Assembly (NCBI GenBank): GCA_030637655.1
Contig: DAOWGI010000051.1
Span: 1 to 11,834, forward strand
Source: a candidate division FCPU426 bacterium
GTDB taxonomy: Bacteria > Oederibacteriota > JAAXVQ01 > JAUVAV01
Reading direction: 5' to 3'
DNA: 11,834 nucleotides
The notes below the pieces were generated by a model that worked only from the letters and a program-made list of their open reading frames with translations, made no database searches and was not told the origin of the DNA. The translations under genes and the position numbers were made by a program. Positions 1-11,697 of the stretch are shown here, piece by piece (positions within the stretch are counted from its first letter, which is position 1; the number at the start of each line of letters is the position of its first letter).

Positions 1-317
1 ACTTCCACTTCCATCGCATCAACCATCGTGCTTTGCGGATCACGAACCACACAATCCTTGGCTTGCCTGCCATATTTTTTCTTGCCGGCACCCGGATTAC
101 CGGGATCCGCCACAAACTCTTTGCGAAACGAAAAATCCACCAGCGTCTTTAAGCTTCGATCCGCCACAAAAATAATATGCCCGCCGTGTCCGCCATCACC
201 GCCATCCGGACCGCCTAAGGGCACAAACTTCTCACGGTGAAAATGGGATGAGCCATTTCCGCCGCGGCCGGCCTGCACACGAATTTGGGCACGATCAATA
301 AATAAATTCTTTTTCAT
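1..317 (-). CDS. obgE: GTPase ObgE/CgtA, N-terminal part (runs off the window edge)
   Basis: Not in the ORF track. Manual translation from ATG 317 gives MKKNLFIDRAQIRVQAGRGGNGSSHFHREKFVPLGGPDGGDGGHGG..., the glycine-rich Obg fold. GAGG RBS upstream; usual position after rplU-rpmA. Confidence 0.97.
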   Translation of the reverse strand, partial: MKKNLFIDRAQIRVQAGRGGNGSSHFHREKFVPLGGPDGGDGGHGGHIIFVADRSLKTLVDFSFRKEFVADPGNPGAGKKKYGRQAKDCVVRDPQSTMVDAMEVE

Positions 318-352
318 AATAGCCTCAAATGTAAAATGAATTGTCCGTGTCT

Positions 353-446
353 GTAGGGAACGGTCGCAACCGAAGGAAATCCCATTCGTAGGGAACAGTC
401 GCGACTGTTCCCTACAATTAATTCCGGTTGGGGGACCGTTCCCTAC
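353..446. repeat. Nested GTAG-type REP-like palindromes
   Basis: Perfect 28-bp palindrome GTAGGGAACAGTCGCGACTGTTCCCTAC (388-415) lies inside a perfect 13-bp outer inverted pair, GTAGGGAACGGTC (353-365) / GACCGTTCCCTAC (434-446). Confidence 0.85.
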
Positions 447-451
447 GATAT

Positions 452-487
452 AAAAAAAAGAGCCCTAAGGCGGACCTTAGGGCTCTT
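452..487 (-). terminator. Rho-independent terminator after rpmA
   Basis: 13-bp perfect stem AAGAGCCCTAAGG/CCTTAGGGCTCTT with a 4-nt loop, followed on the minus strand by a T-run, just downstream of the rpmA stop. Confidence 0.85.
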
Positions 488-505
488 GACTTTCGTAGAT
501 TCGCC

Positions 506-892
506 TTAGACGCCGGCTGCATCCTCCGAGGGGCGCGCTTTCGTTTCCGGCTCAAGTGTTGCAGTTGCGGTTTCTGTTGCCAACACAGTAGCTTTTTCAG
601 CTTGCAAAGCAGCAACGGTTTCAACCGGCGCCAGAGCATTGGCATCCAGCACAGAGATAAAACGGCGGCCACGTTCTTTGCCTATGTATTTCACCATACC
701 ACTAATCTTGGCAAATAGGGTGTTGTCTTTTCCCATACCCACGTTCTGTCCGGGCTTGAATTTGGCTCCGCGTTGGCGCACCAGAATACTACCGGCGGTT
801 ACCACCTGACCGGTAAAACGCTTGCAGCCCAGCCGTCGACCGGCGGAATCTCGTCCATTTGTACTTGAACCTTGTCCTTTTTTATGTGCCAT
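506..892 (-). CDS. rpmA: 50S ribosomal protein L27 with a C-terminal extension
   Basis: [22 protein letters not shown]...GSILVRQRG...GKDNTLFA signature; GGAGG RBS; directly follows rplU. Confidence 0.98.
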
Positions 893-904
893 GCCTCTTG
901 CCTC

Positions 905-1222
905 CTACTTTCCGGGAACCACATCAACCACTTTGATCTGGGTATAATACTGGCGATGCCCACGAATGGTTGCTGAGTGTTTGCGAGCTTTGTACTTGTA
1001 ACTTATGACTTTGGCACCGCGAGCTTGACGAATAACCTCACCCACGACTTTGGCACCGGCAACCAGGGGTTTACCCACAGTTACTTTGTCATTGTCGCCA
1101 ATCAGAAGTACGCGGTCCAATTCAACCTGTTTCCCTACTTCCGCTTCCAGGCGCTCCACTTTGAGGAACGCGCCTTTATCTACTTTATACTGCTTCCCAC
1201 CTGTTTCAATTACTGCATACAT
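905..1222 (-). CDS. rplU: 50S ribosomal protein L21
   Basis: MYAVIETGGKQYKV...GHRQYYT motifs; GGAGG RBS. Confidence 0.98.
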   Translation of the reverse strand: MYAVIETGGKQYKVDKGAFLKVERLEAEVGKQVELDRVLLIGDNDKVTVGKPLVAGAKVVGEVIRQARGAKVISYKYKARKHSATIRGHRQYYTQIKVVDVVPGK

Positions 1223-1273
1223 GTTCCTACCTCCAGGAAATCGGCATAATACTCCACCGAACGAAGAAAAAAT

Positions 1274-1302
1274 AATATACTCAACCCAAAGTGTTTAGTC
1301 AA
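1274..1302 (-). promoter_or_regulatory. Sigma70-type promoter of rplU-rpmA
   Basis: Minus strand TTGACT (1302-1297), 17 bp spacer, TATATT (1279-1274), about 50 bp upstream of rplU. Confidence 0.65.
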
Positions 1303-1316
1303 GCCTTTTATTAAAA

Positions 1317-1465
1317 AATTGGTAACATGGCAGTCATGCGTTTTTTTGTTTGTCATCCCCGAATGCTTATATCGGGGATATGGTTTAAAAAACCAGATTC
1401 CCGATTAAACCCTCGGGAATGACAATCTTTGTTTAACTGCGCAGTTTACTGACATGTTACGAATT
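1317..1465. mobile_element. MITE/REP-like composite palindromic element
   Basis: Outer 18-bp IR with 2 mismatches (1317-1334 / 1448-1465). Inner IR TTGTCATCCCCGA / TCGGGAATGACAA (1350-1362 / 1413-1425). Three internal hairpins at 1355-1379, 1381-1395 and 1397-1420. Confidence 0.65.
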
Positions 1466-1577
1466 ATATCTATAAAAACAACAATTCTGCCGATATTATG
1501 CTTAAGGATAATACGGTCTATATCAAAATCCTGGTATAGCAAGAAACCGCAAATTTGTGCTTTAAGGAGTGTCTGTA

Positions 1578-2654
1578 ATGATAAAGCGAATGATAAGTAC
1601 TTTGCTCTTACTTGTGATCACAACTAGTTTGCTGCTTGGTTGTTCGCCCATACGCAAATGGAATCACCTCAATCGTCAAACCATTAAGTTCTTTGACGCC
1701 GGCAAATATACGGAAGCCACCAAATTGGCGGAAGAAGCTTTAACCTATGCGGAAGCCTCCTTTGGCAGCAATCATCTGCATGTGGCCACCTCTTTGAAAA
1801 ATCTGGTTTTTCTGCATAACATGCTGGGAGCTCATGATAAGGCACGGAATCTATTAACTCGTGCCCTGTCCATTAAAGAACTGAAACTCGGACCTGAGCA
1901 CCGGGAAATCGGTCTCCTGTTCATGCAGCTTTCTGAAACCTACCGATTTGAAGGCAATTACACGGAAGCGGAAACGTTTGGCAAACGATCCTTAGCAGTG
2001 CTTAAAAAGAGTCTGGACACAGAATCCCTTCTCTTAGCTGAAGCCATGAACAATCTGGCTTTTGTGTATGATGCCCAAAAGAAAAACAAACAAGCGGAAG
2101 CCTTGTATGAGGAAGTATTGACCATGCGGGAAAAAACACTGGGTGATAACAGCCCGGCTTTGCAACCGTATCTGAATAATCTGGAAAATATCTATCGCAA
2201 GCAGGGGAAAATCAATCAAGCCATTGAACTTTCCATTCGTTCCATAATCATAGAAACTCTGGAGAACCAGAGCATGCGGAGTGACTATGTACAATCCGTG
2301 GTTAATTTGGCATCCTTGTATTTGTCCTCCGGGCGCCACCTGGAGGCTGAACCAATGGCACGCCAAGCCTTACACCTGCATCAGGAAAAATTGGGGAAAT
2401 TGCATCCCCGCATTGCGTTGGATCTGGATCTGCTGGCTCGCATTCTGATCCACGAAGGACGTCTGGAAGAAGCCGACTCCTTGTACCGACGAGCCCTCAA
2501 GATTCAGGAAAACGCGCTTCCGGCAGATCATCCGCATCGAAAAGAGGTTACTAATAATTATATTCAATTGTTAATAAAAACGGGCCGGCGGGCAGATGCG
2601 AAAAAACTGGAAGCAGAAATGCAAGCTGTGAATCATCAATTAAAAAAGGAATAG
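1578..2654 (+). CDS. Tetratricopeptide-repeat lipoprotein (kinesin-light-chain-like TPR_10/TPR_12 repeats)
   Basis: About 42-aa repeats (A..L.NLA..Y...G....AE.L...AL...E..LG..HP) and a lipobox LLLGC. AAGGAG at 1564-1569 favours ATG 1578 over GTG 1569. Confidence 0.85.
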   Translation: MIKRMISTLLLLVITTSLLLGCSPIRKWNHLNRQTIKFFDAGKYTEATKLAEEALTYAEASFGSNHLHVATSLKNLVFLHNMLGAHDKARNLLTRALSIKELKLGPEHREIGLLFMQLSETYRFEGNYTEAETFGKRSLAVLKKSLDTESLLLAEAMNNLAFVYDAQKKNKQAEALYEEVLTMREKTLGDNSPALQPYLNNLENIYRKQGKINQAIELSIRSIIIETLENQSMRSDYVQSVVNLASLYLSSGRHLEAEPMARQALHLHQEKLGKLHPRIALDLDLLARILIHEGRLEEADSLYRRALKIQENALPADHPHRKEVTNNYIQLLIKTGRRADAKKLEAEMQAVNHQLKKE

Positions 2655-3511
2655 GTCAAGCCTAAAGAGAGAATCTGTTTGAGCTGGCGGCGCACAGAAA
2701 TATCATGATCGTAAAACAATTCTACATTCAGCTGCACATTAATATATTTTGCCAAGGCAGCCGTGAAATTATTATCCCAGCGCACATCCGTGGTATCCAT
2801 ACTTTTTAAATTGGAAAAAAATTCCAACTTTGAAGTAAACAAAAGAATATCGGTTAGCTGCAGACGAAAGTCGGTAGTGGATTCCAAACCCGCCTCAACC
2901 TTTATTTTTTCAATGTCTGCGGTATCCGGATCATCCGTATAGGGAACGGGAAAATCCCGGGTTATGCTCTCTTTGATTGCCAAACCCAAGCGTGTTTCTA
3001 CTATCGGATCAAATGCATAGCCTAAGCCCAGACTCTCGATAAAATAACCGGGATCCAAAAAATCGGCAATCTGAATTTTTACTTCGTCCTGATATTCATA
3101 GCTTGGTGTTAGTTGGGTCTCACCTTTCAGACTGAGGTATGGATTGAGATACTTTGCCAATGAGTAGGTAAAAACACTTTCTATTTTGATATCATCCGAA
3201 GATTTCCGGAATTCCTGTCCACCGGTCTGGGTCTCACCATAGGATATTTTTCCCGAATTGGTCCACTGATACTGTCCGGTTTTTAATTGCGCTTTACCCC
3301 GTAATCCCAATTGCCAGGAAATACTGTTTTCACCGCCTTGGGACCAGTTATCAAAACGATTTTGGGTTAAATTGAGCTGCCCGATAGCCTCATTTTTCCA
3401 CAAACTCTGCGCAGTCGGCGTATTGGCGATTTCTTCTGCTTGGACGCACACGCTGCTGATTAGACAAGCCAAGAGTAACAGACATACCAACCGAATACGT
3501 ATACCCAACAT
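2636..3511 (-). CDS. DUF3078-family putative outer-membrane beta-barrel protein
   Basis: Signal peptide ending VQA; Q..F.NW..GGEN, RKS.D, F.DPGY and DV.WDN motifs; barrel-type C-terminus LGLTYSF. Its 3' end overlaps the TPR gene convergently by 19 bp. Confidence 0.8.
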   Translation of the reverse strand: MLGIRIRLVCLLLLACLISSVCVQAEEIANTPTAQSLWKNEAIGQLNLTQNRFDNWSQGGENSISWQLGLRGKAQLKTGQYQWTNSGKISYGETQTGGQEFRKSSDDIKIESVFTYSLAKYLNPYLSLKGETQLTPSYEYQDEVKIQIADFLDPGYFIESLGLGYAFDPIVETRLGLAIKESITRDFPVPYTDDPDTADIEKIKVEAGLESTTDFRLQLTDILLFTSKLEFFSNLKSMDTTDVRWDNNFTAALAKYINVQLNVELFYDHDISVRRQLKQILSLGLTYSFFN

Positions 3512-3540
3512 TTCTCATCCCTTGGTTTATATAATCTTCT

Positions 3541-3590
3541 GTAGAGACGCGATTAATCGCGTCTCTACAAGGCGTCAATCGCGTCTCTAC
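3541..3590. repeat. GTAG-type REP-like palindrome plus a duplicated right arm
   Basis: Perfect 28-bp palindrome GTAGAGACGCGATTAATCGCGTCTCTAC (3541-3568); arm AATCGCGTCTCTAC repeated at 3577-3590. Confidence 0.85.
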
Positions 3591-3597
3591 ACGACGA

Positions 3598-5703
3598 TTA
3601 AAAAAACAGATTACCCCATTTGACAAAGACAGGCGCCAAGACTAATGACACCACGCTCATTAACTTAATTAAAATATTTAAGGACGGACCGGCTGTGTCT
3701 TTGAACGGATCACCAACCGTATCACCTACTACCGCTGCTTTGTGCGCATCCGAACCTTTGCCGCCGTGCGCGCCGCCTTCAATGTGTTTTTTAGCGTTGT
3801 CCCATGCGCCACCGGCATTGGACATAAATATTGCCATCAACACACCACACACTGTAACCCCCGCTAAAAGTCCGCCCAGGGCACGGAGGCTGACAAAACC
3901 AACAATCACCGGAACACAGACAGCTAGAAGTCCGGGCATAACCATTTCTCTAATCGCAGCGTCAGTAGAAATTTCCACGCATTTGGCATATTCAGCTTGG
4001 GCTTTGCCTTCCATTAAACCGGGAATGTTCTTAAACTGACGACGAACCTCTTCAATCATGGCCTTAGCTGCGCGGCCCACAGCATTCATGGCAAATGAGC
4101 TGAAAAGAAAAGGCAGCATGCCGCCCACAAACAATCCGGCCATAACCACTGGATCGGAAATATCAATAGTAGTTAACCCCACCTGGGTACGAAAAGCAGA
4201 GAAAAGCGCCAACGCGGTCAAGGCAGCCGAACCAATGGCAAAACCTTTACCAATCGCTGCCGTGGTATTTCCCACTGCATCCAGTTTATCCGTGCGCGCA
4301 CGAACCTCTTTGGGCAGCTTAGCCATTTCGGCAATACCGCCGGCATTGTCTGCAATCGGACCGTAGGCGTCAACTGCCAACTGAATACCCGTAGTGGAAA
4401 GCATTCCTAAAGCAGCAATGGCAATTCCGTACAGACCAGCCAGTTTAAAGGCCACCACAATAGCCACTGCAATAACGATCAATGGAATAGCGGTGGAGTT
4501 CATACCAATAGCCAGACCCTTAATGATATTTGTTGCACTACCGGTTTCCGAAGCATCGGCAATACTACGGGCTGGTTTTCGATTCTCCGCGGTATAGTAT
4601 TCCGTCACACCGGCAATAATCAAACCGGCCGCCAGACCAACCACTGTGGCCAAAGCAATGCCCCACCAGTAAAAAGTGGTTCCGGAAACAGTGAATTTGG
4701 CAGGCAGCATTACTTTGATCAGCACTATAGTTAATACTGCCATCAAACCGGCTGTTAAAAAAGTTCCGGTATTTAACGCAGCCTGCGGGTTGCCGCCTTC
4801 TTTGGTACGCACGAAGAAGGTACCTAAAATGGAAATAATAATTCCGGCTGCCGCAATAATCAAGGGCAGCATAATCGCATTGAACTTCATACCCGCGCCG
4901 CCCGGTTCGGCGGCAATGGCAGGAATCCAAATTGCGCCCAAGACCATAGCACCGATAATGGATCCAACATAGGATTCAAAAAGATCCGCACCCATGCCGG
5001 CCACATCACCCACATTATCGCCGACATTGTCCGCGATGGTTGCGGGATTGCGCGGATCATCTTCCGGAATACCAGCTTCAACTTTACCGACCAGGTCAGC
5101 GCCCACATCCGCGGCTTTGGTGTAAATACCGCCGCCCACACGGGCAAACAGAGCTATTGAGCTGGCGCCCAATGAAAACCCGGCTATGGTATTAATAACA
5201 ATGGAGGTTTCATTGCCTGTAAAATTCCAGATGTTGCAATAAATAAGCAAGAGAAGTCCGAGTCCCAAAGTAGCCAGACCAACCACGCTCATGCCCATAA
5301 CAGCGCCGCCGCTGAAGGCAACTTCCAAGGCGGCATTCAAGCTCTTTCGCGCTGCGGAGGCTGTACGGTAATTGGCTGCCGTAGCCACGCGCATGCCAAA
5401 GAAACCTGCCAGACCGGAACATATGGCTCCGACCACAAAAGAAAGTCCAACCATCCAGCTGGAACCTTCCATGCCCGCATTGGCTAGTGCCAAGAGCACG
5501 GCCACACAACCCACAAAAACTGCCAACACTTTATATTCGCGGCCTAAAAACGCCATGGCGCCTTCGCGAATATGTCCGCCAATCTCAACCATTTTTTCAG
5601 TCCCGCTGTCAGCCTTATTCACTTGTTTGGCTTTAAAATACGCGAACAGCAAAGCCAACACACCGGCAGCAGGAGTAATGTACAGCATCATTTCCAGACT
5701 CAT
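3598..5703 (-). CDS. hppA: Membrane-bound K+-dependent, probably Na+-translocating pyrophosphatase
   Basis: [29 protein letters not shown] and [10 protein letters not shown] motifs. GNTTAA has Ala at the K+ determinant; gate Glu lies in ADLFESY, as in Na+-PPases. Confidence 0.95.
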
Positions 5704-5848
5704 CTTTTCTTCTCCTCGTTGAAATTTTATAATTGCTTAATATGTCTCAGGACAGTATTTTTCATAGATGTGGAGTAATCAAACAGCGAGAAATACAACC
5801 TATAGATATGAAAGTATGGCTATACTGTTTCCGACATAATCGGGCAGC

Positions 5849-5878
5849 ATCATAGCAAAGCTTTCAGGCCGTAGTCAA
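5849..5878 (-). promoter_or_regulatory. Sigma70-type promoter of hppA
   Basis: Minus strand TTGACT (5878-5873), 18 bp spacer, TATGAT (5854-5849) with an extended -10 TGn. Confidence 0.55.
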
Positions 5879-5930
5879 CAGGAAAAATGGAAGCATAATA
5901 ATTTCTCTTAATTTTATTCCTCTGTGATCT

Positions 5931-6371
5931 TCAGGAAGAGTCAAAGGTATTCCGGCAGGGCCGGTTTTCCTGGATCAGCATCCACTGCGAGGAATTCACA
6001 ATAGGCCGAAAACCCACTTTCTCATACACGCCTTGAGCATCCGGCGTGCGCAACATCCACTGATAGACCAGTCTTAATTTTTTGTGATCCAAGGTAAAGC
6101 GTACCATACTCTGACCGATCCCTTGCTTACGCCGATTCTCCTCAACCACCACATCCATGATATAAGCAAAACAAACCTGATCTGAAACCACGCGCAAATA
6201 TCCAACCAGCGTTGAATCCAGATAGGCCCCCACAACTAAGGCCGAATGCTTGGCAGCATAGCGCACCTCATTTTGCGTAATACCTTTGCACCAATGTTCA
6301 CGGGCGAGCAATTCGGTTGCCTTTTCAAAATCAATTTGCTCAATCCGGTCGGCAAAATGAAGATTTTGCAT
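5931..6371 (-). CDS. GNAT-family N-acetyltransferase
   Basis: VGYLRVVSD..FAYIMDVVV...RKQGIG acetyl-CoA motif and A.GVYEKVGF. Start moved to ATG 6371 because AAAGGA lies at 6385-6380. Confidence 0.9.
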   Translation of the reverse strand: MQNLHFADRIEQIDFEKATELLAREHWCKGITQNEVRYAAKHSALVVGAYLDSTLVGYLRVVSDQVCFAYIMDVVVEENRRKQGIGQSMVRFTLDHKKLRLVYQWMLRTPDAQGVYEKVGFRPIVNSSQWMLIQENRPCRNTFDSS

Positions 6372-6444
6372 ACGAATGATCCTTTGATATTTTATGCATA
6401 TACACCTGCTCGTATCAGGAAGCACAGTTCAGTTTTACGATATT

Positions 6445-6689
6445 TTATCCTTCATATAAATACTGCTGAAAATTTACCACATACAGGTAATGCCCCGTGG
6501 CTTGCCACGGGAATACCGCATACCCTCTCCCTTTGGAGAGGGATAAAGGGTGAGGGTCACCTTATCATGCCCTGCGGCTTGCCGCAGGGTAATTGACAAA
6601 CGTGTTTTTAATAATATCCACCCCGCCAAGTGCCTCAGCAGCATCTGCCAGGGATCAATTAGCTCTGCTCTGGTTTCCGCTTCATTCAT
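6445..6689 (-). pseudogene. hsdR: Type I RM restriction subunit remnant (N- and C-terminal stubs only)
   Basis: ATG 6689 gives MNEAETRAELIDP, an HsdR N-terminus. It is joined out of frame to LADAAEALGGVDIIKNTF (6651-6598) and, after a 120-bp insertion, VNFQQYLYEG* (6477-6445), resembling the EcoEI-R-type C-terminus. Confidence 0.8.
6478..6597. mobile_element. 120-bp non-autonomous IS200/IS605-like mini-element
   Basis: Two directly oriented GGC-TT-GCC hairpins (6494-6511, 6570-6589) and a central CCCTCTCC/GGAGAGGG hairpin (6523-6542). Removing it restores the hsdR frame ...NTF|VNFQQYLY; no target duplication beyond an ambiguous GT. Confidence 0.7.
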
Positions 6690-6706
6690 AAGTGCTAGTC
6701 CCCGCA

Positions 6707-7846
6707 CTAAATAAAAATATCCAGGTATTTTTTATACATGTAGGATTGACCATATTTCTGGTCTTCATCTTTTTTGGTAAGAATCCCGATTTTAATAAAC
6801 CGGTCAATAACAGTCTGCGCGCCTGCGCGTGTGAATCCGGTCCACTTTTGCACAAGCGCCGTATTGACAATGGGCTGACCGTACAATTTTGGCAATACTG
6901 CAACCGCACTTTCTGATGCACGTTTACCTAGTGCCTGTATCTTGACCATATCTTTTTCACGCAACACAGTAATCTTCCCAACCATGTCTATGGCTTCATT
7001 GGCAATTTCAATCACGCCATCCAAATAAAAATCCAGCCACGTATATATTTTGCCTTCATGGTAGTCTGACAGCTTTTCGTAATAGAGTTTCTGGTGTTTT
7101 TTGAAATACGCTGATAAAAACAAAACCGGTTTTTCTAAAAACCGCTCTTTCCACAAATAAAAGGTAATGAGCATTCGTCCGGTTCTGCCATTGCCATCCA
7201 AAAAAGGATGAATGGTCTCAAACTGGGCATGAACCAAACCAGCCTTTATCACTATGGGGATTTCGTCTTCTATATTAATGAATTTCTCCAGGTCCGCCAA
7301 TGCTTGCTTCATTTCATGCACTGGCGGTGGAACAAAAACAGCATTATCCGGACGAGTTCCGCCTATCCAATTCTGGCTTTTCCGAAATTGACCGGGATCA
7401 GAATAATGAGATGATCTTGCCTTGTGCATAAGCTCTTTATGCAGTTCGCGTATAAAACGAAGCACCATGGGAAAATTATCCTCTTTGGCACGTTTCATGC
7501 CATAATCGAGCGCCTTGAGATAATACAATATATCATCAACATCTTTTGGGATACGGTCACTTATTTTGACTTCAGCTTCAATGGCATCCATCATGGTGGC
7601 CATGGTGCCTTCAATCTGGCTGGAAGAAGCAGCATCTTTTCTCAGATACATGAGCAAGAAAAAGTCAGCATCCGGCAAAAGTTTGGTAATACCATCCAGT
7701 TTGCCCAAAAGCCTCGTGGCTTCACTGTCTTTTTTCAATATTTTCGGATCAAAATCAAATCCAGCTTTGGTTGGAAAAGGATTGGGTATAAAGGCGTTAT
7801 AGCCCTGAGGTTGGGATCTTAATATTCCGATTTCAATTGCTTTCAT
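6707..7846 (-). CDS. Fic-family AMPylase, SoFic-like (class II, N-terminal inhibitory helix, probable C-terminal winged helix)
   Basis: Catalytic HPFLDGNGRTGR; inhibitory SSQIEG; PGQFR.SQNWIG; C-terminal helix-turn-helix-like segment. Confidence 0.93.
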   Translation of the reverse strand: MKAIEIGILRSQPQGYNAFIPNPFPTKAGFDFDPKILKKDSEATRLLGKLDGITKLLPDADFFLLMYLRKDAASSSQIEGTMATMMDAIEAEVKISDRIPKDVDDILYYLKALDYGMKRAKEDNFPMVLRFIRELHKELMHKARSSHYSDPGQFRKSQNWIGGTRPDNAVFVPPPVHEMKQALADLEKFINIEDEIPIVIKAGLVHAQFETIHPFLDGNGRTGRMLITFYLWKERFLEKPVLFLSAYFKKHQKLYYEKLSDYHEGKIYTWLDFYLDGVIEIANEAIDMVGKITVLREKDMVKIQALGKRASESAVAVLPKLYGQPIVNTALVQKWTGFTRAGAQTVIDRFIKIGILTKKDEDQKYGQSYMYKKYLDIFI

Positions 7847-7847
7847 G

Positions 7848-7926
7848 AGTTTGTTTGCATCCTTTTTTTGAATGTATACAAACTATAGCAGTTTGTATAC
7901 ATCTGGTCAAGCAATGTATACAAACT
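7848..7926 (-). promoter_or_regulatory. fic promoter overlapped by 13-bp operator-like boxes
   Basis: TTGACC (7910-7905), 17 bp, TGc-TATAGT (7887-7882). Box ATGTATACAAACT at 7872-7884, inverted at 7890-7902, again at 7914-7926; 11/13 inverted copy at 7848-7860. Confidence 0.7.
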
Positions 7927-7934
7927 TTTGTGCA

Positions 7935-8060
7935 TTATAACTCTCCCTGAAAAGCCTTGTTTAATAAGGGTTTTTTCAACTCCTCCAGATCAGAAAGCTT
8001 CTTCTGGTAGATCGTTTCCAGCTTTTTTGTTTCAACAGAGAGAGAATCGAGTTTGTTGAC
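7935..8060 (-). pseudogene. hsdS: Type I RM specificity subunit, C-terminal stub
   Basis: Not in the ORF track. Translates VNKLDSLSVETKKLETIYQKKLSDLEELKKPLLNKAFQGEL*, the HsdS terminal coiled coil ending KAF.GEL; no start or TRDs upstream. Confidence 0.85.
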
Positions 8061-8514
8061 AGTTAATCCACTCTTTAGAATGTCCTTTTGCAAGGTAAGT
8101 TTTCATAGCACGATCAAAAGCCAATTCGGGATCTTCGGTTTCTTCAATTCGTTCGTATCCCACTTTTGCCAACCATACTTTAAATGGTTCTGCTTTAGGT
8201 GAAGGAATTGATTGAATCAGACGTAAAAGTTGTTCGGTGTCAGCTACATCTGCCATTCGCGCTTTGCCGTCTTTGGCAAGCATTTTCAAACGGTTACAAT
8301 TTGTAACCGTTTCGTTTCCTTCTTTTAAAAGCCTGTATTTTAATACTTTCCAGTAATTCCTTGCTCCTTGAAAATCTTGTTGAGCTGTTAAAATTGCCAC
8401 AACATCAATAATAGAGAAATACCAAAGCTCTTTTTCCTCGTCCCAATGAGTTCTGACAGCTTGCTTTTAGAATAACTGTATTTTATTTTCCTTCTTTGCT
8501 TTTTTGTTATCCAT
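8061..8514 (-). pseudogene. BRO-N (phage antirepressor-like) DNA-binding protein pseudogene
   Basis: ATG 8514 gives MDNKKAKKENKIQLF*KQAVRTHWDEEKELWYFSIIDVVAILT... with an in-frame TAA at 8469-8467. RNYWKVLK and QSIPSPKAEPFK.WLA motifs are present. Similarity stops at EWIN, where it fuses to the hsdS stub. Confidence 0.8.
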
Positions 8515-9535
8515 CACTGCCTCGATTTTCAATCAAATGTATTTCCCTTTCCAGCTCGGCTTTTAATTCATCTTCTGTCGGAAGCACTAATCTGTATTTT
8601 GACGCAAAAAGCTGTTCACTCTCTTTTAGTACGGAATATTTAACAACCGTAGCTTCTTTATCACTGCAAAGAATTATCCCTATGGTCGGATTATCGTCCT
8701 TGCCCCGCTTTAGATCATCAAACATACGAACATACATATCAATCTGCCCGATATCCTGATGACTAAGTTTGCCGGTTTTCAGATCAATAAGCACAAAACA
8801 TTTGAGAATGTAGTTATAAAAAACCAAATCAATATAAAAATGGCTGGTTTCAGTACTAATTCTGAATTGCCGGCTTACAAAAGAAAAGCCTTTCCCGATT
8901 TCAAGAAGAAATGATCGAAGGTTGTCTATAATTGCCTTTTCAATGGTTGATTCTTTTAAGTTTGCATTTTCCGGCAGATTAAGAAATTCCATGACATAAG
9001 GATCTTTTATAAAATCACGGGGATTTTCTTTTTCAAAATCTTTTACTGAAATCACAGCACTTTTTTTATCCGAGGACGAAAGTAGTCTTTCGTAGTAATG
9101 GGAATTGATATTTCGTTGCAACTGCCGAACACTCCAGTTTGCTGCTTTGGATTCCTTAAGGTAATATTCGCGAGTTTTAAAATTATCTATCCGCATAATC
9201 AGACGAATATGTGACCAACTCAATTCTCTACACAGTGTGTAGAGTTTTTCGGTTTCCGGAAAGATCAGATAAAACTGTCTAAAATTCCAAAGATTCGCGA
9301 CAGAAAATCCCTTCCCAAACTCTGTATTCAATGCAATAGAAAGATTTTTTATGAGTTCCTGCCCATATTCAGCCCGGTTTTTTCCTTTTTGTTCTTCAAT
9401 CACAATTCTTTTGCCAATACTCCAATAAGCTTCAACCATTGCAGTATTAATGGCAGAATAGGCTTTGTTTCTTGCTTTTTGTAGGATTTCACGAATATCG
9501 CCATAAAATGTGTTATCAATTTTTAGCTTTTTCAT
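8507..9535 (-). CDS. yhcG: YhcG/DUF1016-family PD-(D/E)XK nuclease
   Basis: YW.IG..I..EEQ.G..RA.YG, LSWSH, KDPY..EFL, IDLVFYNYILKCFVLIDLK, D.GQ..MYV and DNPTIGIILC motifs; intact 342 aa. Confidence 0.92.
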   Translation of the reverse strand: MKKLKIDNTFYGDIREILQKARNKAYSAINTAMVEAYWSIGKRIVIEEQKGKNRAEYGQELIKNLSIALNTEFGKGFSVANLWNFRQFYLIFPETEKLYTLCRELSWSHIRLIMRIDNFKTREYYLKESKAANWSVRQLQRNINSHYYERLLSSSDKKSAVISVKDFEKENPRDFIKDPYVMEFLNLPENANLKESTIEKAIIDNLRSFLLEIGKGFSFVSRQFRISTETSHFYIDLVFYNYILKCFVLIDLKTGKLSHQDIGQIDMYVRMFDDLKRGKDDNPTIGIILCSDKEATVVKYSVLKESEQLFASKYRLVLPTEDELKAELEREIHLIENRGSDG

Positions 9536-9536
9536 A

Positions 9537-10043
9537 TCATACCAATCCCTTAATTTCCTTCATTATCTCCGCACTCTCTTTATCCAACGCTTTCATCTGC
9601 TCCAGTATCACCTTCGGCTCGCGCAGTATTGTTTCATCTTTTTTATTCGGATTTTTGACGGATAGATTATACGTCCTGGTATCCACATCTGCTATTTTGA
9701 TTGTCCAGGAATTATTTGAATCTGCTTTGGTTTTCTGCAATTTGACAAATTCTTTCAGATCATCGCCCGTAAGCGCTTTGTGATGATCAAGTAGGGGCGG
9801 TTCGCGAACCGCCCCTACAGATATTTTGGGTACAGCCCAGGTTTCCCATTTAAAAGCCGGCTTAATAATATCCGTATAGGACCTGCCTGCCAATTCCGCT
9901 GCGGTTTTTTTATCTTGCTCCAGGTCATCCAGATATTTTAAGAAAAGAACCCACGAGGTCTGTTCCACATAATCCAGTTCACTGGAGCACCCGGCATCTT
10001 TGTGCAGGATATCATCAATATTTTTAAACGCTTGTTCAAACAT
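9537..10043 (-). pseudogene. hsdM: Type I RM methyltransferase with an in-frame internal deletion of the catalytic domain
   Basis: N-terminus MFEQAFKNIDDILHKDAGCSSELDYVEQTSWVLFLKYLDD is joined at DDLKEFV to an HsdM C-terminus (...YNLSVKNPN...LREP..IL). Only 168 aa; no SAM-binding or NPPF motif. Confidence 0.88.
9791..9818. repeat. GTAG-type REP-like palindrome inside the hsdM frame
   Basis: Perfect 28-bp palindrome GTAGGGGCGGTTCGCGAACCGCCCCTAC, translated as VGAVREPPL. Confidence 0.85.
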
Positions 10044-10079
10044 ACCGCTATTCTCCTATCGACAAACAGAGTCATTATC

Positions 10080-10163
10080 CGAATAACCGGTTATTCGAAT
10101 GCTTTTCCCGGTTATGTATTCAAAACCATTCCAGATTGTACAATTTCCTGTGCTGTAGTGCAA
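10080..10163 (-). promoter_or_regulatory. Promoter of the hsd operon with a downstream 18-bp palindrome
   Basis: TTGCAC (10163-10158), 17 bp, TACAAT (10140-10135); perfect palindrome CGAATAACCGGTTATTCG at 10080-10097. Confidence 0.5.
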
Positions 10164-10413
10164 GTTTTCCGAGGGTAAGTGGGGAAATTGAAAAGTTGAT
10201 AAGGTGAGAAGCTGAGCAAATGGAAAAATTCAAAAATCCTAAGGAATTTAGTGGCTGGCACCATATTATATTTGTTTTCCAGTCAGCGGCCTCTGTCCAA
10301 TTCCGCTGCCGTACCGTGTTTAGTTCCCATTGTAATTTTCCGATAATTAATATTAAAGTGAAAATTGATTTGATTTTCTTGTGTGCATATTACGCACTAA
10401 AAAGGAGCGATTT

Positions 10414-11697
10414 ATGTCTTCCAATGAAAATGAAATGCACAATCCAATAGTCATAGGCCTTACCGGCCCCTTCGGAAGCGGTTGTACGACCTTTGCCAAT
10501 TATTTTGATGATTTAAGTGAATATGATAAAAATCAAAAAAACTGGAGTCAATTTATTAGATATTTAGGATTAAAATACTATTTTAAAAATGATAAAAATG
10601 AAAAGGGAGAACTAGATCTCTCGGAATTCGATGACAAAATATACAGGCTTTATACCAAATTTAAGGAAGAAAAAAGAGCTGTGAATATTTATGAAAAATT
10701 AAAATTCAACCTCGAAAAAAGGGAGCGACTCAATGCCTTAAGCGGAGAAACCAGCAAGCTGGCGCTTTATGTGAATAAAGAAAATCAAGGCGAACACCGT
10801 ATCATATCAATATCTGTTTCAGATGTAATAATATACATGACATTAGGGCACAAAATATCAAACAATAATGCGCCTGATAAAAATAGTGCTGCTCAAAGAA
10901 AAAAAATCGATAATTATCAAAAGATTACTAAAAAGTATAAGTCCAAATATAATGGCCCTTTAACATTAATTAAAAAACACGAGATGATACGGCTGCAAAA
11001 TAAAAAGCAAGTTAAAAACAACGGGAAAACTACAAACCAGAAAATCGAAAATTCTATAATTCAAACATTCCAGACAATTCGCGAAATCAAAAAAGAACTC
11101 AATGGTGGAAAAAAGTATCGAGATTTGCTGCAGGATTTTGGCGATAATATCCGCAGATGTGGAAACCCGTTTGATTACGAAAACAAGTTTGCTTTTGAAA
11201 ACCATATTTCAAATAATCGATGGGAAGACTTCTTAATGTGCGAAGTATCAAAAATAATAAAAATGCTACAGCATGTTGCGCAAGACAGCATTTTTATTAT
11301 TGATAGTATAAAAAACCCATACGAAGTTGAATATCTGCGTGAGAAATTTATGAATTTTTATCTTGTATCCGTCTATGCAGATAAAGCCCAGAGAAAAAAG
11401 AGAGAAGTGGATAAAAGTCTAAATGGCAAAAAAGTCGAGGAACTCGAGAATGAATTTGAAGCAAATGATAAACGTGACAGAGGAAAATCCATTGAATGCG
11501 ATGAGGAATCTTTTTATAAACAGAATGTTAAAAAATGTGTTGAGTTATCCGATATTGCAATAAACAATGAAGCGAGCAAGGGGAAATTTTATGAAAAGAT
11601 ATTGAGATATTTCGCCTTAATCCTTGATAAAGGCTGCACCAAACCGAATACTGATGAAGCGCTGATGAATCAAGCCTATGCCCTGGCTATAAGGTAA
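10414..11697 (+). pseudogene. AvcD-like anti-phage dCTP/dCMP deaminase; P-loop kinase half only, interrupted by IS66
   Basis: IVIGLTGPFGSGCTT P-loop, LQDFGDNIR, FIIDSIKNPYEV..LR, Q.V..C...SDI.INN, then P..DE..M..AY...R, which opens the deaminase domain. The stop TAA lies inside the IS66 end. AAGGAG supports ATG 10414. Confidence 0.8.

Follow-up and report, generated by a model that had tools for sequence, protein, structure and literature searches.

The stretch of DNA described here, referred to below as the window, is one whole contig (DAOWGI010000051.1; C44 in our numbering) of 11,834 bp, which belongs to a draft genome of 3.28 Mb in 120 contigs with 45% G+C. Four runs of a single study, labelled cold seep metagenome, contain near-identical DNA. 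A decayed operon of a Type I restriction-modification (R-M) system lies on the minus strand of the window, from position 10043 down to 6445; its core genes hsdM, hsdS and hsdR are stubs, and two accessory genes, yhcG and fic, are intact. The anatomy of this region is observed directly and comprises the following features, listed in the direction of the operon.

9537..10043, minus strand: hsdM remnant of 168 amino acids (aa), identified by Pfam, PADLOC and alignment to intact HsdM.
9791..9818, no strand: 28-bp perfect palindrome GTAGGGGCGGTTCGCGAACCGCCCCTAC in the hsdM stub, seen in the sequence and adding six extra residues in frame.
8507..9535, minus strand: yhcG, intact (DUF1016_N + YhcG_C PD-(D/E)xK nuclease; Pfam, PADLOC).
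8062..8514, minus strand: bro pseudogene (Bro-N; PADLOC PDC-S13), with the C-terminal ~135 codons deleted.
7935..8060, minus strand: hsdS remnant, the last ~40 codons and the stop (PADLOC Specificity_I, E 3e-7).
7873..7929, minus strand: fic control region, with a predicted -35 element TTGACC at 7905-7910, a predicted -10 element TATAGT at 7882-7887 and a 17-nt spacer.
7873, 7894 and 7915: three TGTATACA palindromes with 21-nt spacing, within the fic control region.
6707..7846, minus strand: fic, intact (Fic_N + Fic; Pfam, PADLOC SoFic, NCBIfam).
6651..6689, minus strand: hsdR 5′ remnant, the first 13 codons (MNEAETRAELIDP), identical in 13 of 13 residues to three intact HsdR.
6598..6654, minus strand: hsdR 3′ remnant, part 1 (SLADAAEALGGVDIIKNTF), in a frame different from that of the 5′ remnant.
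6476..6597, no strand: repeat of ~120 bp with three GC-rich hairpins, inside the hsdR 3′ end and recognized by its genome-wide copies.
6445..6477, minus strand: hsdR 3′ remnant, part 2 (VNFQQYLYEG, stop 6445-6447), placed by HsdR alignment.

A functional Type I R-M system depends on an HsdM with the N6_Mtase catalytic domain, an HsdS with two target-recognition domains and an HsdR with nuclease and helicase domains. At this locus, HsdM is reduced to HsdM_N and a C-terminal tail, HsdS to its last ~40 residues with no start of its own, and HsdR to its 13 first and ~30 last codons, which lie in different frames. With such remnants, the locus can no longer have any restriction or modification activity. 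The original prediction, which had read hsdM, hsdS and hsdR as stubs left by three separate deletions, with yhcG and fic full length between them, is borne out: the breakpoints could be placed by alignment to intact relatives, both Pfam domains of yhcG are complete, and fic has its Fic_N and Fic domains and both motifs. The stubs share 52-80% aa identity with the intact operons of related genomes, the best hsd references available. A closer intact copy of the exact operon was not found, and among the best 120 full-length HsdM matches listed the identity in the best segment was at most 76%. Elsewhere in the genome (G000), contig C68 gives matches to HsdM, HsdS and HsdR and contig C36 to hsdM and hsdS, a possible redundancy with the decayed operon, and there are five further BRO and three further YhcG paralogs.

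The breakpoint in hsdM was placed by aligning the stub with four intact HsdM of 484-496 aa from related genomes (L011-L014). The stub, which matches Pfam HsdM_N with 27.7 bits and PADLOC MTase_I at E 3e-30 in two stretches, keeps residues 1-97 and the last ~70, and ~322 codons comprising the whole N6_Mtase domain are gone. The junction, earlier estimated at ~9744-9764, falls at 9752/9753, between ...GDDLK and EFVKLQK..., and preserves the frame. At the corresponding positions the intact references carry imperfect direct repeats in the same frame, GATGATCTGAAAGAtTTTGT (GDDLKDFV) and aATGATCTGgcAGAaTTTGT (NDLAEFV), and the joint in the window has the sequence GATGATCTGAAAGAATTTGTCAAA. Because the breakpoints lie in two in-frame direct repeats, no selection is needed to account for the in-frame outcome.

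The second deletion joins bro to hsdS. The ATG of bro (8512-8514) overlaps the stop of yhcG, and its codon 16 is TAA (8467-8469), the nonsense codon noticed earlier. The match to PADLOC PDC-S13 (E 1e-53) covers profile positions 35-144 of 286, with homology ending at ~8062-8065 (...SKEWIN). A PDC-S13/BRO-N gene would be an uninterrupted open reading frame (ORF) of ~276-288 aa; here the frame is broken at codon 16 and homology reaches only to about profile position 144. The end of hsdS is fused to bro out of frame at ~8061-8065, with a 2-3 nt overlap at the joint. The junction foreseen at ~8061 is present. The third deletion lies in hsdR, with its junction at 6651-6654 and a TCCC-like tetranucleotide as the overlap. 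The position of ~6651 given for it before was right, and the last ~30 hsdR codons beyond it had been overlooked. Since the gene ends remain in place, all three hsd lesions are internal deletions.

Two small repeats interrupt the remnants. The ~120-bp repeat in the hsdR 3′ end, two of whose three hairpins have a GGCTTGCC centre, occurs in nine other full-length copies in the genome at 88-95% identity (for example G000:C28:15760-15888, C70:7350-7475 and C64:19937-20062) and in ~10 partial ones; shorter central pieces are found in this and related genomes. Rfam holds no family for it, and elsewhere in the window nothing exceeded any gathering score. Excising 120 nt restores the reading T-F-V-N-F-Q-Q-Y-L-Y, where the references have T-F-I-D-F-Q-K/R-Y-L-Y, and in run X1 a contig of depth 4, with 28 letters on its shorter side, skips exactly these 120 nt, which hints weakly at an allele free of the element. 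The 28-bp palindrome of the hsdM stub is absent from all 25 aligned hsdM homologs. It has four sites in the genome, two of them exact (a reversed control gave 0); besides the one in the window they lie at G000:C100:26125-26152, C30:67227-67254 and C47:38167-38194. Many near-exact copies were seen in the related genomes G020, G001, G010 and G026.

Taken together, these remnants would derive from an operon of ~8 kb with the order hsdM-yhcG-bro-hsdS-fic-hsdR. In the proposed course of events, three internal deletions between short similar sequences would have removed the cores of hsdM, of bro together with hsdS, and of hsdR; bro would additionally have been hit by the nonsense codon, and the two small repeats would have been inserted into the operon. 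Decay of this kind in a Type I operon is ordinary, and here it is probably recent.

The reality of the junctions was checked in contigs assembled separately for each of the four runs (X1-X4) of the one study, in which the presence of the locus is observed as follows.

Junction 8061 (bro/hsdS): bridged in X1, X2, X3 and X4.
Junction 6651 (hsdR): bridged in X1, X3 and X4.
Junction 9752 (hsdM): bridged in X1 and X2.
TAA of bro, 8467-8469: covered without difference in X1, X2 and X3.

The bridging contigs show no differing letters at the junctions and break only at repeats. It could be supposed that the stubs are an artefact of assembly or binning, or a low-frequency form of an operon that is otherwise intact, given that the draft is fragmented into 120 contigs, that the window is the whole of an 11.8-kb contig, that rare variants drop out of contigs, and that the four runs come from one study and include one that is possibly the source sample. 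This explanation is extremely unlikely. Independent contigs bridge all three junctions, the similarity at the joints is 2-8 nt, too short to mislead an assembly at k=31, and no alternative joint into intact hsd sequence was reported among the run contigs. An artefact of this assembly, by which the original prediction could have fallen, is ruled out; a minority intact allele is compatible with the contigs.

The in-frame deletion in hsdM raises the question of whether its 168-aa product has a role, for example as a translated leader for yhcG, a scaffold or a decoy. The deletion keeps the frame, the TGA of the stub abuts yhcG, lying 1 nt ahead of its ATG, and the junction recurs in databases. Proteins of 92-294 aa matching the stub at E <= 1e-5 number 2,926, of which 120 were listed (P0001-P0120); 33 of these 120 cover >=97% of the stub, and 24 of the 33 were aligned. 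The joint of the stub, TGD followed by DLxxFxxLQK, is also found in six of the 24 (149-163 aa; P0002, P0010, P0011, P0012, P0014 and P0041), one of which stands for a cluster of 30 member sequences; the other 18 have various other junctions. Among the same-junction forms the joint residues read DLKEFV, DLADFV, DLREFV, DLIQFV, DLAEFI or DLAEFV, and such differences imply that the crossover points differ within the repeat. When the seven same-junction forms, counting that of the window, are compared with 233 full-length HsdM, every one is nearest to a full-length HsdM (78-94%) and further from any other mini (65-80%); the bigger full-length set favours that side somewhat, and the margins are wide. 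The minis are therefore independent recent accidents, and the comparison suggests a hot spot at which deletions have arisen independently on many occasions rather than a maintained lineage of mini-HsdM. Given also that recombination between two in-frame repeats yields an in-frame product automatically, a functional mini-HsdM is improbable. A peptide-pattern search of 157 loci and the own genome found no same-junction mini-hsdM besides the one in the window.

A broader conjecture can be built on the same repeats. In a widespread family of 484-aa HsdM, the conserved in-frame direct repeats GDDLxDFV and NDLAEFV would flank the catalytic domain and make it recurrently excisable, leaving a mini-HsdM of ~160-170 aa. 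Such excision would be a regular route from a Type I operon to a passenger-only locus, with the mini-ORF kept to bring ribosomes to the abutting passenger, here yhcG, or for a role of its own. As a whole, this conjecture is improbable. That the catalytic domain of HsdM is excised recurrently, through repeats, is the only mildly new point of the locus, a small addition to the ways in which R-M systems die. Public protein sets contain many 'HsdM N-terminal domain' proteins of 140-220 aa; these are HsdM with internal deletions at varied junctions, and excision of this kind may explain many of these short database proteins.

The first of the two survivors, yhcG, is complete. Its Pfam domains are covered end to end (1-137 of 137 and 2-156 of 157), the nuclease core reads IDL...DLK, and the match to PADLOC PDC-S02 (PDLC04807) is full length, with 476 bits and E 2e-143. 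Its expression probably still depends on the old operon, with transcription from the hsdM promoter and translation just behind the in-frame hsdM stub; no minus-strand terminator-like site was found between 10043 and 8507. A census of 80 homologous loci from many phyla, at 55-82% identity, shows the same arrangement repeatedly. In 31 of them the start of yhcG lies no more than 10 nt from the stop of an ORF ahead of it on the same strand, and a 4-nt overlap is frequent; these preceding ORFs are 9 HsdM, 4 HsdS, 3 RhuM, 1 Mod, 2 YhcG fragments and 12 unclassified. Of the 80 loci, 45 contain one or more R-M subunits, often in the order hsdM-yhcG-hsdS, and 22 contain all three hsd genes. The 35 loci in which the seeds found no R-M subunit are an upper bound, because the extra HsdM and HsdR seeds from G000 are short (101-195 aa) and detection rests mainly on the other seeds. 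The closest relatives, at 82% aa identity, come from metagenome-assembled genomes of another phylum, where the DNA match spans the gene alone and no fic accompanies it. Comparative sequence evidence of this kind makes yhcG most likely an autonomous single-gene unit.

The second survivor, fic, carries the catalytic motif HPFLDGNGRTGR and the inhibitory motif SSQIEG, read from its translation. It fits both motif definitions, HxFx(D/E)GNGRxxR for the Fic core and (S/T)xxxE(G/N) for the inhibitory motif. Against PADLOC SoFic it scores 353 bits over profile positions 5-358 of 361, and the Pfam domain SoFic-like_C was not detected in it at E 0.01. The original prediction held that both survivors use the signals of the old operon. 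This is probable for yhcG, as described above; fic, however, has a predicted sigma-70 type promoter of its own and would not be on operon signals. The three TGTATACA palindromes are the only ones in the window, where 0.08 would be expected by chance. The set recurs in one of 29 other Fic loci, that of the 79%-identical ortholog in genome G013, and the palindromes are putative operators, possibly autoregulatory.

Comparison with this ortholog also delimits the unit. The promoter region is conserved between the two, and the DNA upstream is not. The DNA homology covers window positions 6699-7929 only, with one edge 6 nt past the stop of hsdS and the other 10 nt short of the ATG of hsdR. Edges so placed imply that fic is a separate, self-contained cassette of 1.23 kb, and with the seeds used no yhcG or hsd was found on the 8.6-kb G013 contig. 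The gene is most likely a SoFic-like AMP-transferase that acts as an autonomous single-gene unit. The Sofic of E. coli is described as toxic and countered by the 47-aa product of a small downstream gene (AS1) (PMC12249575). At the present locus the downstream ORF is chimeric, composed of parts of hsdR and the ~120-bp repeat. A different arrangement of Fic genes was observed at G005:C3 (L054), where 6293-10752 holds three tandem Fic-domain genes beside HepT/MNT and SocA-type toxin-antitoxin genes, with a repeated TTAATTAA palindrome upstream of one of the Fic genes.

The sparing of both genes had led to the proposal of a stand-alone YhcG+Fic module and of an undescribed system. Neither proposal is supported. 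By sequence match, yhcG and fic each belong to a catalogued single-gene class (PADLOC PDC-S02 and SoFic, respectively), so that the locus does not qualify as a new system, and the two genes have separate histories, which is observed directly in their relatives: the nearest relatives of yhcG lack fic and those of fic lack yhcG. The suggested survey of co-occurrence was made as a census of the phylum (99 genomes; Fic homologs at E <= 1e-30). Fic homologs were found in 26 genomes at 31 places, and YhcG_C in 35 genomes at 76 places, besides those of the window. The two lie <=3 kb apart in three of the 98 other genomes.

G002:C9 (L015), 3205-10261: Type III mod-fic-yhcG-res operon, with fic and yhcG adjoining.
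G098:C14: Type I island with hsdR, yhcG and fic.
G094:C1 (L050), ~6898-9788: frameshifted hsdM fragment of ~100 codons, yhcG without its first ~37 codons, and an intact fic.

The last of these, L050, belongs to a different family of the phylum and is likewise decayed, with no other hsd gene within 6 kb. Of 30 Fic loci in the phylum, seven have R-M subunits <=6 kb away, 22 have neither R-M nor YhcG, and YhcG adjoins in three; for these neighbours Pfam was run on 140 of 265 ORFs, the other 125 being screened with phmmer seeds only. Such adjacency in three genomes exceeds the ~0.05 cases of a rough random-placement estimate, and in G002 the pair stands side by side inside the Type III operon, both points in favour of a cooperating two-gene defence module. 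That reading is nevertheless very improbable. The pair is not conserved outside R-M loci, two of the three cases lying inside intact ones and the third beside an hsdM fragment, and the above-chance adjacency is explained by shared embedding in R-M operons. Gene order and partners vary between the cases, Fic lies within 10 kb in only three of the 80 YhcG loci, and in the window the two genes are 660 bp apart with dead DNA between them, fic having its own promoter.

Autonomous survival leaves the question of whether the two genes were spared by selection, as the original prediction proposed, or by chance. It is plausible, and we infer, that purifying selection keeps yhcG and fic while dead hsd DNA is deleted. 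The placement of the deletions was simulated on the inferred ancestral layout of 8.13 kb, with three non-overlapping deletions placed uniformly. With the observed deletion sizes, yhcG and fic with its promoter were both spared in 0.10-0.63% of trials, and with random sizes of 100-2,500 bp in 3.7%. Sequence constraint was compared by the proportions of nonsynonymous (pN) and synonymous (pS) differences, with L078 and L080 used for yhcG in the comparison of substitution-rate ratios (dN/dS).

fic against G013: pN 0.12, pS 0.78.
yhcG against L078: pN 0.11, pS 0.62.
hsdM stub, N part, against L012: pN 0.08, pS 0.72.
hsdM stub, C part, against L012: pN 0.11, pS 0.58.

Several points weigh against survival under selection as defence genes. 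The simulation is post hoc, model-dependent and based on an inferred layout. In the dN/dS comparison, proposed as a means to separate genes from stubs, the stubs look no less constrained (pN 0.08-0.11) than the intact genes (0.11-0.12), and synonymous sites are saturated (pS 0.58-0.78); nearly all divergence from the compared relatives predates the decay. The remnants carry one point lesion only; decay therefore looks recent, and intact yhcG and fic ORFs may need no selection. No RNA run carrying the locus was listed. In its match to the NCBIfam SoFic equivalog model, fic reaches 125 bits where the cut-off is 550. In one report, the single PDC-S02 representative tested fell outside the four of eight candidates that protected E. 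coli B (PMC12881386).

Neutral and very recent decay, in which the deletions missed yhcG and fic by chance and neither gene is under selection, would account for ~1.25 kb of hsd and bro remnant with a single point lesion and otherwise open frames, for the like pN of stubs and genes, and for the loss of the first ~37 codons of yhcG at the comparable locus G094:C1. This explanation is unlikely, as three deletions would spare both genes so seldom in the simulation, and as the promoter and palindromes of fic are conserved with its ortholog while the flanking DNA is not. The simulation favours purifying selection; the substitution comparison decides nothing between the two. The preferred interpretation is that the locus represents a wrecked Type I R-M operon, in which yhcG and fic survive as passengers, most likely autonomous single-gene ones, and it is held with good though not full confidence. 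The two genes may act in defence or as toxins.

Outside the operon, positions 1-6425 carry ordinary genes of the chromosome. By eye, the ORF list gives the start of an Obg-like GTPase, the ribosomal proteins L27 and L21, a TPR protein, an outer-membrane protein and a membrane pyrophosphatase, and a Pfam match identifies a GNAT acetyltransferase. On the other side of the operon, a 438-aa ORF on the plus strand (10381-11697) resembles models of anti-phage dCTP deaminases (NCBIfam, profile positions 2-232 of 437; also PADLOC dCTPase) over their N-terminal, kinase-like half only and ends without reaching a deaminase domain. In the final 137 nt of the contig, up to 11834, all three forward frames contain stops. 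This ORF may be another broken defence gene or merely be cut by the contig end.

Among known systems, the closest likeness is to Type I R-M operons with accessory genes such as DUF1016/YhcG, RhuM, BRO/DinD and Fic, which the gene set and order of the window fit. The difference is that all three core genes are destroyed here, leaving passengers without a working host system. An enrichment of DUF1016 and RhuM genes in the neighbourhood of R-M genes, and their occurrence among the core genes of Type I systems, have been reported (PMC9881135). The PADLOC 'PDC' candidates owe their definition to repeated occurrence inside R-M, BREX, DISARM and Hma loci, according to another source, in which SoFic ranks with the most abundant defence genes of cold-seep genomes (PMC12881386). 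With the single-gene anti-phage SoFic of Shewanella and E. coli, the window's fic has in common the Fic_N and Fic domains, both motifs and a full-length PADLOC match; it differs in falling under the NCBIfam equivalog cut-off, in the lack of a detected SoFic-like_C and in its TGTATACA set. The window's YhcG matches PDC-S02 over its full length with both Pfam domains complete, although PDC-S02 is a candidate class without shown function.

The presence of possibly toxic or defensive genes inside an hsd operon also recalls the PrrC-EcoPrrI paradigm. In that system a passenger nuclease is guarded by the Type I host enzyme, and the latency of PrrC depends on the Hsd proteins. At the window's locus, in contrast, the Hsd proteins are gone, and as the passengers widely occur without them, their autonomy can be argued. 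SoFic-like and DUF1016 genes would then work alone, and not as guards that need Hsd proteins. The locus therefore offers a clean natural example of passenger genes of a restriction operon outliving their host system, as well as a caution that leftover neighbours in a decayed operon can be misread as a new multi-gene system.

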